The notes under the pieces are model-generated. The model did not search any database, was not told the origin of the DNA, and worked only from the letters and a program-made list of their open reading frames with translations. A stretch of 57,677 nucleotides of DNA from Escherichia phage vB_EcoP_24B, in the sequence record HM208303; one strand, given 5' to 3'. Below are positions 49,148 through 57,571 of the stretch, piece by piece (position 1 is the first letter of the stretch; every line of letters begins with the position of its first letter). Both the position numbers and the translations under genes were made by a program.

Positions 49148-52100
49148 ATGCCCGGCCATTGTGCCGGGTTTTTTTATGGAGTCTGTATGGCCTATTCAGA
49201 GGAACAGCGTCCTGAGGCGCAACTCGGTAACCAGAATCGTAACAGCCTGAACATTCAGCAACCCGGCGAAACTGACAGCTATGAAGCATTTTTCTCTGAT
49301 CCGAATCGCTGGAAGGATAACAGTACGTCGTTCAGCCTGGGCGATGTATTGCCAACAATGGGTAAAGGTTTCGCCCAGTCCGTCCGGGGAACAGGGGAAA
49401 TGGCCCGTGGACTCGGTGATGCGATGATTCAGAGCCCGGTAAAAACAGGGGTGCGTATTTTAAATGAGTTCAGCCGTATGGGGCTGCCGGGTGTCGCAAC
49501 TGTGCAGGATATTTTTGCCGGTGGCAGCAGGGGGGCTGATGAGGTCATCGATACCCTGCCTGATGGCAAAAACGCGGTTACTGATACTGTCGGTAAAGGT
49601 CTGAAGGCAACCGGTAAGGCTGTCAGTGATGGTGCTGAAGCCACTGATGAATGGCTGACCGGTAAGATGTCGCCGGGTGCTGTTCGTGCGCTGAACACGC
49701 CAATGAGTGAAGGCTATGATGATCCCGCAGTCTGGCTGACGAAGGGGATGAATTTTGTCGGTGCCGTTGCGACAGATGTGTTTGCTGGCGGTGTGGCTAA
49801 AAAGGTGGGTGATGTCACACTGCGAAAAATGCTGACCGCCGGGCTGGAGAAAAAATACATCGCGGCAGGGATGCAGCCGGAAAGAGCCTCGGCACTGGCA
49901 GCAGAAGCTGTCGATAAAAAAATGCCGGATTTATTCCAGGCGGGCCTGATCACCCATTCAACAGCCAGTGCACAGGGGCAGAGTGCAATGGCGGCAGCAG
50001 ATGCTGTTCTTAATGCGGATTACTCTGAGCTGGCGCAGTCACCGAAATTTCAGCAAATGTTTTTGTCCATTGACGCCGACCCGCAGCACGCACAGCTTAC
50101 TGATCGCCAGAAAATGGACCTGGCAAAAGAGCGTGTGGCTGATGAGGTGCGTGCGCAACTGGCAACCGATCCTCAGTTGCTGGCTGTGAATGCCATGGCG
50201 GCAAAACTGGGCGATGCTCAGTTGCTTAATCTGGCGATGCGGGGCACAGCGAAGACCGTTAAAAGCGGCATTGTCAGAAATGCCACTGCACAGGGGGCGA
50301 TTAATGCGGCGCAGGGCGGCTATTCACGCTATCAGGAAAACACGGCATTGCGTGAGACCGCCGGAATGGATGTATCGCCATGGGAGGGCGTGGCTGACGC
50401 AACGATCGAAGGTGCTGCCCTTGGTGCTGCGATGGGGGCTCCATTCGGTGCAGTTGCCGGATATCGTGGCAGACGTCAGGCCGCAGAAGAAACCGCCATG
50501 CGTGATGCTGAAACCGTGCAGCAGGACGACGCAGCCCCGCAACCAGAATCTGTTGATCCGGTGGCGCAGCATCGTGAATCCATGCAGGGGATGAATCGCG
50601 AGCAGCTTCTGGAGCAGTATGCTGATGCGGATATGGCGACAGAGGGTGACGCATCCGCAACTCATCGCCGGGAAGCCGCCAGCCAGCTGTTGAATGAACT
50701 GGACGAACAGGCGAAGCGACAGGCTGTGATGAATGAGCTGAAGGCGAAGCCGCGCCCTGAACTGCTTGAGGAATACCGAAAACTCAGCCTGAAGGAAGGG
50801 CGTACTGATACTGAAGAGCAGCAGTTTCAGGCAATACGTGAAGTCATTCGCCCACAACAGGAAGTGACGCCTGAAGCACAGTCACAGCCTGAAAATGCGG
50901 AGGATGGTAACGGGAGCATTTACCCGACGGTGCGGTTCCGGGACCCGAATGAAGTCCGCATTGAAATTAACGGGAATGGTGCGTCCAGACCAGCGGAACG
51001 CATTGAAAAGGTGCGCCCGGACAACCGTTATTTCACGGATGAGAAAAGCGCCATGGGGAGTGATGTTTTCCGTAATGCCGCCGCCACCGGCCTGAAACCG
51101 TCCGTAGTGAAGAAAGGCGAGAATCAGTATGCCGTTGAAATGGATAATCCTGCGTTCTCTGAAGATGTGGCAACGGAAACCATTAACACCCTGGCTGACA
51201 GAGAGCGTATTGCTGATGCTGACCCGATGGAGCAGCCCGCGTTCATGCGTGACCCGCGATTCCGTGGTTTCACGGGGGATGATACGGAGGTACAGGCCCG
51301 CCTTGCCCGTGGCAACGCGCCGACGGCGGAGGAGCTTGTACGTTCACAGATGGCTGAAGGTGATGCCGGTCCGACAGCACAGGAGTTAACTGAGCGTCCG
51401 CGTCTGCCCGCCCCCGGCGATATTCATCCCGGACAGGGATATCCGTTACCGGGAGAGGTGGCGCGTACGCCGGATGAGAATCAGGCCGGACGTGGTGGTC
51501 GTTTTACCACAACCGGTGAGGTTAAGGGCCAGAGTTTCCAGAAAGGACGTGCTCCGGCACCGGAAAACGCCGCTGGTCGCCAGGGGGAAATACTGGAGGG
51601 CGAAACAGTTCGTCGTGGTCTGCCGTCACCGGATGCGCAGAACGCGACAGCACCGGTACGTGAAGGGCTACCGGCTCCTGACATTGCGCGTAATGTTCGT
51701 ATGCCTCAGCCTGAATCACTTCCCCGCACTGTACGGGACTCACTGCCTGAGCTTGCACAGCAGGCAGAAGTACGCCGACAGGCCGGAGGAAATCGTGACA
51801 TCCCGCAGCCTGAGACAATCGCACCTGAATCTGAAACAACTGTCTCTACTGACAGGGAAGCTACCGTGCGCGGAGGTGAAGTCAGGGGCAAAAAAATTGA
51901 AGACTTTGGCGAGGAAATTAAAGGGGCAGCCAAACACCGTTATGCACAGCTTGCTGAAACACTGGGTAAAACGCTGGAAGACAGGGATTATGCCACGCAG
52001 CCGCTGAGCAAACTGTTCCCGAAACCGGACTACGCAAAACTGGCGAACGAAGGTGCCGATGCTGATACCCTGGCAATGATAGCGCTGTATCGTAGCGATA

Positions 52101-57571: not shown

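Follow-up and report, generated by a model that had tools for sequence, protein, structure and literature searches.

A virion-packaged giant protein of phage phi24B: predicted zincin and RNase modules before a family-wide LPD38 C-terminal module

Introduction

Polyvalent proteins represent a distinctive group of giant multidomain phage proteins, encoded within virion gene blocks and defined by Iyer, Burroughs, Anand, de Souza and Aravind in 2017 (PMC5512222). They are built around zincin metallopeptidase (MPTase) hubs, PBECR RNase domains and LPDs, among which LPD38 is described as phage-specific. The main text of that study mentions neither Shiga toxin (Stx) nor phage 933W. The present work concerns a gene of this kind in Escherichia phage vB_EcoP_24B (phi24B; record HM208303), whose 57,677 nucleotides (nt) form the window analysed here. 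The gene lies at 49148..57571, and its product, gp47, is alike to polyvalent proteins in all of the above features. It is the same gene as L0134 of 933W and orf71 of VT2-Sakai and is not different in kind. The protein itself has already been reported, in 2026, as a virion-packaged polyvalent or ejection protein (bioRxiv 10.64898/2026.04.10.717836, hereafter the preprint). Added here are its probable start codon, the placement of LPD1 within the first zincin-like domain, a second zincin-like domain that lacks a Pfam model, the recognition of the MuF_C cassette as an RNase fold and as polymorphic, the domain boundaries, the extent of the LPD38 module family and its strict confinement to the C-terminus, and evidence for gp48 as a possible virion partner.

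Other described systems offer useful comparisons. According to PMC5512222, the virion RNA polymerase (vRNAP, gp50) of phage N4 is very large, packaged unprocessed and ejected into the host, and its zincin MPTase region is needed for encapsidation. gp47 is likewise very large and packaged largely unprocessed, whereas no RNA polymerase domain was detected in it; an N4-type vRNAP reading was rejected, as scans of Pfam, NCBIfam and PHROG returned no RNA polymerase family. The giants of Bcep22-like and Ralstonia phages (BcepIL02 gp70, 4667 amino acids (aa); JC1 gp69, 4515 aa) possess a homologous C-terminal module and are also encoded by the last gene of the virion block. The JC1 homologue has been found in virions with 51 unique peptides, and the Bcep22-like group and 933W share portal, capsid and head-closure genes. 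The cargo differs, being SLT, Eco57I methylase, helicase and LPD3 in the Bcep22-like proteins and LPD5, two zincins and PBECR in gp47.

On balance, gp47 is rather likely to be a late-made 308-kDa polyvalent protein that is packed in the capsid, with a C-terminal module for incorporation or exit and a cargo acting after delivery. The reading of the initial annotation, a multi-domain internal virion protein, is largely borne out, the ejection and anti-defence activity that it suggested being putative. Several unrelated effector and LPD domains (LPD5, LPD1, MuF_C, LPD38 and two zincin-like) stand in one polypeptide, the gene is the last of the late/virion block and, as to packaging and delivery with the DNA, virion packaging is shown by published mass spectrometry (MS).

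Presence of gp47 in virions

The coding sequence (CDS) 49148-57571 was identified by Riley et al. (2012) as the target of the immunoreactive clones CM7 and CM13, with its expression tied to prophage induction. The preprint describes gp47 as a protein of 2811 aa with LPD5, LPD1, LPD38 and 'MuF-C' domains, abundant in purified virions and not visible in the cryo-EM map, and proposes it as an ejection protein. In the preprint supplement, the database entry reads '49136_to_57568, Frame 2, 2811 aa'; this is the present open reading frame (ORF) read from stop to stop, from which the 2811 aa arise. Another passage of the preprint sizes the protein at '>3,000 amino acids'.

Whether the protein occurs in virions had been named by the initial annotation as a check, and the published MS answers it in the affirmative. 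gp47 yields 10,962 peptide-spectrum matches (PSMs), second only to the major capsid protein (17,998) and ahead of the portal (2,226). Its peptides include some at aa 32-54, 158, 509, 864, 1218, 1741 and 2681 and span aa 32 to about aa 2697, and every region of the polypeptide is therefore present in virions. On the gel, the strongest gp47 signal comes from the top slice, 62% of its gel PSMs stem from slices above that of the 80-kDa portal, and the signal tails to lower masses. Because of this distribution, gp47 is packaged mainly as a very large, probably full-length polypeptide. Orthologues are 93-99% identical in DNA across 185 Stx-phage records, including 933W L0134 and VT2-Sakai orf71, and are annotated as 'hypothetical', as 'LPD5 domain-containing protein' or, in RefSeq, as 'LPD5/LPD38 domain-containing protein'.

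An outer-membrane or lysogenic-conversion role, guessed for CM7 by Riley et al. (2012), would suit the position of the gene after the lom and bor morons and the immunoreactivity of the CM7 product in lysogen cultures. However, expression follows induction and not lysogeny, the protein is highly abundant in purified virions, its homologues are virion proteins, and it has no hydrophobic N-terminus. Moreover, the modelled part (aa 1189-2807) is helical or alpha/beta, not a beta-barrel. Contradicted by both virion proteomics and domain content, this reading was rejected as virtually untenable.

Integrity and start codon of the giant gene

49148..57571, + strand: giant ORF of phi24B, gp47 and target of CM7/CM13, 2807 codons plus stop
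49187..57571, + strand: probable true CDS from the second ATG, 2794 aa, 308.1 kDa, isoelectric point 8.5, without Cys
49150..49176, + strand: terminator-like hairpin GCCCGGCcattgtGCCGGGT with a T-run, lying after the upstream gene and before the probable start, conserved in Stx2_4151

The initial annotation had described an uninterrupted ORF of 8.4 kb ending the late operon after the tail and lom genes, and both points hold. The ORF listing shows no long ORF in this region other than 49148..57571, and within it only short ones in alternative frames, although translation is likelier to start at 49187. The gene comes after the tail, bor-like and lom genes and four small ORFs and closes the rightward late/virion block. 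Its translation contains the strings quoted at that time, FGFRGVQFGNYVEG...GNGPGALAHEWFHSLDNYFG and LRHEIIHHAMEH. The motif HEWFH falls at aa 1297-1301 and HEIIH at aa 1564-1568, a spacing of 267 residues where about 270 had been given; 0.035 HExxH motifs would be expected by chance from the protein's own His and Glu content, against the 2 observed. The 'Gly-rich' region around HEWFH is only moderately so (14% Gly).

A split into two or more frameshifted genes had also been considered. The gene is intact in all 185 phage records and in 423 of the 426 E. coli genomes that carry it, out of 5,426 complete genomes. Among the rows listed, PGAP gives a single CDS except in one case with an IS66 insertion. 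The gene makes up 15% of the phage genome, and its overall ratio of nonsynonymous to synonymous substitution rates (dN/dS) is 0.15-0.22 against four alleles.

The second ATG, at 49187 rather than 49148, is probably the true start, because several features of the sequence converge on it. A GGAG at 49178-49181 lies 5 nt before this in-frame ATG, whereas the hairpin (49150-49169) and its T-run overlap the first one, which reads ATA in Stx2_4151. In addition, the annotation in two other phage records starts at the second ATG, the PHROG 616 profile alignment begins at aa 14, and the 13-aa leader between the two ATGs holds the only two Cys of the protein. The accessible part of the preprint's MS table contains no N-terminal peptide that decides the start codon. 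The hairpin before the gene might limit gp47 expression to Q-antiterminated late transcription.

Zincin-like domains

52730..53527, + strand: zincin-like metallopeptidase domain 1, about aa 1195-1460, with HEWFH at nt 53036-53050 and LPD1 (aa 1374-1453) as its C-terminal half
53615..54037, + strand: zincin-like domain 2, about aa 1490-1630, without Pfam model, with HEIIH at nt 53837-53851

The domain-by-domain searches advised by the initial annotation, with hidden Markov models and structure prediction, recovered Pfam domains as well as zincin-like and BECR folds. Four Pfam domains, all well above cut-offs, are present in gp47, namely LPD5 (aa 1064-1213), LPD1 (1374-1453), MuF_C (1763-1852) and LPD38 (2490-2695). 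The NCBIfam model 'CLCA_X' scored 148.6 bits on aa 1195-1450, below its cut-off of 260 bits, and was not used as a family assignment.

The earlier suggestion that the HExxH regions are metallopeptidase-like agrees with their predicted zincin folds and with the conservation of the motifs. Both motifs sit in helices of the predicted model, are retained in all alleles compared, and stay invariant among homologues with as little as about 30% identity. Across 81 aligned homologues of aa 1189-1900, the residues H1276, E1278, H1297, E1298, H1301, D1304, E1388 and E1395 are near-invariant. The second motif is invariant, as HEAFH, HETFH, HEMFH or HESMH, in 17 homologues at 15-26% identity, and E1621 in a later helix aligns with a conserved acidic column of the zincin-2 homologues. 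According to Iyer et al. (PMC5512222), the phage-type zincin MPTase is marked by a conserved His ending strand 2 and an Asp three residues past HExxH, a description with which AAAHYE...HEWFHSLD of gp47 agrees. The model also contains the zincin core fold of an N-terminal helix, a three-stranded sheet and two C-terminal helices. By their alignment columns, E1388/E1395 in zincin 1 and E1621 in zincin 2 may serve as the third metal ligands.

Since the conserved Glu helix EMAARAFE (E1388, E1395) falls inside Pfam LPD1, LPD1 is the C-terminal half of zincin 1 and not a separate domain. HEWFH is outside the LPD1 envelope, yet belongs to the same structural domain. LPD1 is listed in PMC5512222 among the LPDs of elusive function, whereas in gp47 it bears the putative Glu-ligand helix of zincin 1.

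The best structural matches of the central model are MtfA (3dl1), lethal factor (1yqy) and the Pro-Pro endopeptidases (PPEP; 6fpc, 9g0j), with 144-167 aligned residues. In common with the zincins related to anthrax lethal factor, gp47 has HExxH and a downstream Glu as predicted ligand. Lethal factor and PPEP are secreted endopeptidases that act on other proteins. Judged from the model, the gp47 zincins resemble protein endopeptidases and not cell-wall peptidases.

It is possible, though we would put it only tentatively, that these domains are effectors against host proteins, for instance defence proteins, and not self-processing enzymes. The largely unprocessed packaging of gp47 is in line with this, as is the action of its lethal-factor and PPEP relatives on other proteins. 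Host-protein targeting is also one option in Iyer et al. (PMC5512222). On the other hand, the domains have no known substrate, and self-processing and host targeting are neither mutually exclusive nor separable by sequence.

The MuF_C/PBECR cassette

54257..54781, + strand: predicted RNase cassette of the MuF_C/PBECR type (BECR-fold, RelE/BrnT-like), aa 1704-1878, where the gene is most polymorphic

The cassette matches the MuF_C family model and the BECR fold. Its closest known systems are the BECR-fold RNase toxins (BrnT, RelE, YafQ, HigB, CdiA-CT, colicin D) and the C-terminal domain of Mu gp30 (MuF). It differs from these in being part of a virion protein of 308 kDa; no antitoxin or immunity gene was identified next to it, and its activity is predicted. 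Because MuF_C is the PBECR predicted RNase domain according to Iyer et al. (PMC5512222), the preprint's term 'MuF-C metallopeptidase' is a mislabel of a domain with a predicted BECR RNase fold, and the idea that this domain digests peptidoglycan finds no support. All five alleles compared, down to 37% identity, keep H1765, H1814 and S1830, of which S1830 is at the end of the last strand. H1765 and S1830 may correspond to the published catalytic His of the N-terminal helical part and the Ser/Thr of strand 4.

Between alleles, the gene is 90-100% identical nearly throughout, except at aa 1704-1878. The borders of the cassette are sharp (...SGKPDPFK before and KILYPEDIR... after it), and its identity to phi24B is 88% in Sakai, 78% in Lyz12581Vzw and 37% in PhiR5_2, compared with 95-100% for the flanking sequence. 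Compared across 186 phage records, 31 cassettes are at least 95% identical to that of phi24B, 4 fall at 90-95%, 146 at 80-90% and 5 below 80%; the 80-90% group is mostly of the 933W/Sakai type, at about 85%. The synonymous rate (dS) of the cassette is 0.5-1.3, which points to the exchange of old alleles rather than to recent drift.

The C-terminal LPD38 module and its family

54824..57568, + strand: C-terminal module, aa 1893-2807 (915 aa), with LPD38 at aa 2490-2695 (nt 56615-57232)

The C-terminal module is predicted as one compact, mostly helical fold (predicted local distance difference test, pLDDT, 84; predicted template modelling score, pTM, 0.81), and it is conserved along its full length at 33-58% identity. 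An exhaustive profile search returned 19,685 cluster representatives, 7,877 of them at E<=1e-30. In all of the best 150 of the 19,685, the match ends at most 37 residues from the C-terminus, and about three-quarters of these 150 proteins have at least 2,000 aa. By tblastn, giants of Vibrio phages (41% identity, 3066 aa) and of Bacillus phage Dartukuta (33%, 4203 aa) carry the module at their C-terminus, as do 'DarB-like' proteins of Burkholderia/Ralstonia (27% over 83-85%, E 1e-56, 4667 aa). The giant gene is the last of the forward block in all three contexts examined (D75, Dartukuta and BcepIL02). The cargo sampled is diverse, including LPD5/LPD1/MuF_C, ART, PBECR5, an inorganic pyrophosphatase, an Sbno-like helicase, DdrB-ParB, RadC, Eco57I methylase/SNF2 and SLT. 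The family rule is a constant C-terminal module with variable N-terminal cargo. Defined operationally here, LPD38-anchored giants have a module of about 900 aa at the extreme C-terminus with variable cargo before it, and gp47 fits this description. From the constancy of the module and the variability of the cargo, we infer that the module serves packaging and/or exit.

Two stand-alone versions of the module were also observed. At 1-12889 of a 60-kb metagenomic contig, a 962-aa LPD38-module protein follows a 1725-aa crAss muzzle C-terminal-domain protein and is also preceded by ORFs of 320, 601 and 1370 aa. The LPD38 module is thereby connected with the cargo-gene region of crAss-like podoviruses. 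At 10001-12946 of an Amphritea sp. contig, a 981-aa LPD38-module protein is located in an apparent integrated element of about 16 kb with an integrase, an excisionase, a YqaJ exonuclease and an S24 repressor and no recognisable virion genes; the element could be a satellite or a decayed prophage.

The PHROG and RefSeq label 'DarB-like' on relatives of gp47 raises the possibility of a DarB-like anti-restriction protein that modifies or shields the incoming DNA. PHROG 10089, 'DarB-like antirestriction', matches aa 2365-2695, and the Bcep22-type homologues carry the same annotation. However, this match covers nothing beyond the shared LPD38 module at the C-terminus, and gp47 is without methyltransferase or helicase domain, whereas BcepIL02 gp70 has Eco57I and Helicase_C. 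A reading of the P1 DarB type was rejected, as no N6-adenine methyltransferase or helicase matches appeared in the Pfam, NCBIfam and PHROG scans. An anti-restriction function of this type is thus very improbable.

The preprint proposes a structural ejectosome, in which gp47 mainly builds a trans-periplasmic conduit extending the short tail and its metallopeptidase digests peptidoglycan. Podoviruses require such a conduit, and gp47 is abundant, internal and not seen in the map. Its C-terminal module is the universal and constant part of the family, and weakly hydrophobic Gly/Ala segments occur at aa 203-221, 420-438 and 2463-2481. Nevertheless, no segment of gp47 attains transmembrane-like hydropathy (maximum 1.22), there is no lysozyme or SLT domain, while the BcepIL02 homologue carries a separate SLT, and no solved phage ejection or core protein emerged as structurally similar. 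The preprint's 'MuF-C metallopeptidase' is the BECR-fold RNase domain, and the true zincins are of the protein-endopeptidase kind. The traits of T7 gp14-16 and P22 gp7/16/20-type proteins (similarity, lytic transglycosylase, membrane-spanning segments) are not found in gp47. The ejectosome is hence rather unlikely; it is compatible with the capsid-packaged polyvalent protein proposed here for the C-terminal module only, and with a peptidoglycan-degrading peptidase it is the weaker account of the two.

N-terminal region, linker and LPD5

49187..50557, + strand: N-terminal region, aa 14-470, without Pfam domain, with Gly/Ala-rich weakly hydrophobic segments
50558..52267, + strand: low-complexity E/R/P/Q/A-rich linker, aa 471-1040, defined by composition, with five [LMI]PxP motifs
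52337..52786, + strand: LPD5, aa 1064-1213, Pfam PF18799, E 6.5e-45

The homologues of the N-terminal 457 aa are restricted to E. coli and Salmonella relatives; one example of its weakly hydrophobic Gly/Ala-rich segments is GAALGAAMGAPFGAVAG at aa 422-438. From its composition, the 570-aa linker is probably extended or disordered. LPD5 and LPD1 occur together in nearly all distant homologues listed.

Sequence searches of the PDB gave nothing usable with the whole protein, the LPD5 profile or the whole A1 profile, nor with the zincin-2 profile (IrrE, E 0.59; ColH, E 2.4). The best match of LPD5 there, below threshold, is the anti-CRISPR protein AcrIIA11 (9utm; aa 1107-1180, window about 52466-52687, E 0.059). 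The alignment looks plausible, covering a beta-beta-alpha stretch with shared F..Y/RR..FI/GF..EAR.Y..DEL features. The Pfam LPD5 model does not match the AcrIIA11 fragment, and the AcrIIA11 papers are silent on LPD5; the likeness is an uncorroborated lead.

Neighbouring genes and DNA elements

47852..49117, + strand: upstream 421-aa gene gp48, detected in phi24B virions
57576..57603, no strand assigned: 9-bp perfect inverted repeat CATGCCCCG...CGGGGCATG with a 10-nt loop, 5 nt past the stop codon, without T-run

In virions, gp48 has 1,634 PSMs, with its maximum in the slice where a protein of about 46 kDa would run. It is marked 'Transcription factor?' in the preprint, which seemingly counts it among dismissed contaminants. 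In Vibrio phage D75, a homologue (E 2e-12) likewise stands ahead of the giant gene, and in Bcep22-like phages this place is taken by a virion protein. With gp69 of BcepIL02, gp48 shows no significant similarity. It may be a true partner of gp47 inside the virion.

Further upstream, the products of the two small genes 46403-47131 and 47128-47580 (+ strand; gp51 and gp50 of the preprint) are also present in virions, with 523 and 129 PSMs. For gp51, PHROG gives a weak match labelled 'virion structural protein'. It may be that internal virion proteins, and not morons, are encoded throughout the stretch from lom to gp47.

The inverted repeat at 57576-57603, close to the prophage end, may mark the end of a transcript or be related to recombination. 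The intergenic region between lom and vb_24B_43 (45553-45980) is reported to encode the 20-nt small RNA 24B_1 (phi24B positions 45711-45692). Its published coordinates in HM208303 coincide exactly with the gap in the window. Both published 50-nt deletion-primer arms match the window exactly, and the interval of 189 nt between them equals the published deletion size. Additionally, the GC maximum of the window (0.60) lies at 38001-40000, with strong GC and AT skew. It falls on the tail spike/fibre gene 38090-40027 and on several long, overlapping ORFs in alternative frames, and the preprint's MS database has a frameshift product, 'Fusion_6159_FS1', at this place.

Proposed mode of action and significance

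As a polyvalent protein, gp47 would be made late in infection and then packed into the capsid, the 915-aa LPD38 module directing head incorporation and/or exit through portal and tail. The N-terminal two-thirds would represent the cargo, with LPD5, two zincin-type metallopeptidase domains and one BECR-fold RNase domain. Upon infection, gp47 would, like N4 vRNAP, exit the capsid in unfolded form, either together with the DNA or before it. Once in the cell, the zincins might cut the polypeptide itself, as Iyer et al. proposed, or host proteins, and the freed RNase and other modules might act on host or defence RNAs early in infection.

Some observations weigh against this proposal. Most virion gp47 is found at very high mass, which implies little processing before or inside the head; the smaller species may result from processing or could be storage degradation, the proteomics sample having been 6 months in storage. 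In addition, the Amphritea sp. protein places LPD38 alone in a small integrated element that lacks obvious virion genes.

Stx phages spread Shiga toxin genes among E. coli. If gp47 is injected, its protease and RNase modules would be the first phage factors acting in a newly infected cell, with a possible influence on host range, lysogenic conversion and superinfection. About 20,000 clusters of giant phage proteins carry the C-terminal module, and phi24B is a tractable model for them, for which genetics, a cryo-EM map and a virion proteome exist. It is conceivable, if doubtful, that the LPD38 module is the universal part for delivery or anchoring in a widespread podovirus system by which swappable effector cargo is injected; this would be a phage counterpart of the polymorphic-toxin architecture in reversed order, with the cargo N-terminal and the anchor C-terminal. 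If this were true, the RNase cassette of Stx phages would have been swapped among old alleles through an arms race with host or resident-prophage factors, and the cassette type would help to set which E. coli strains an Stx phage productively infects or superinfects.

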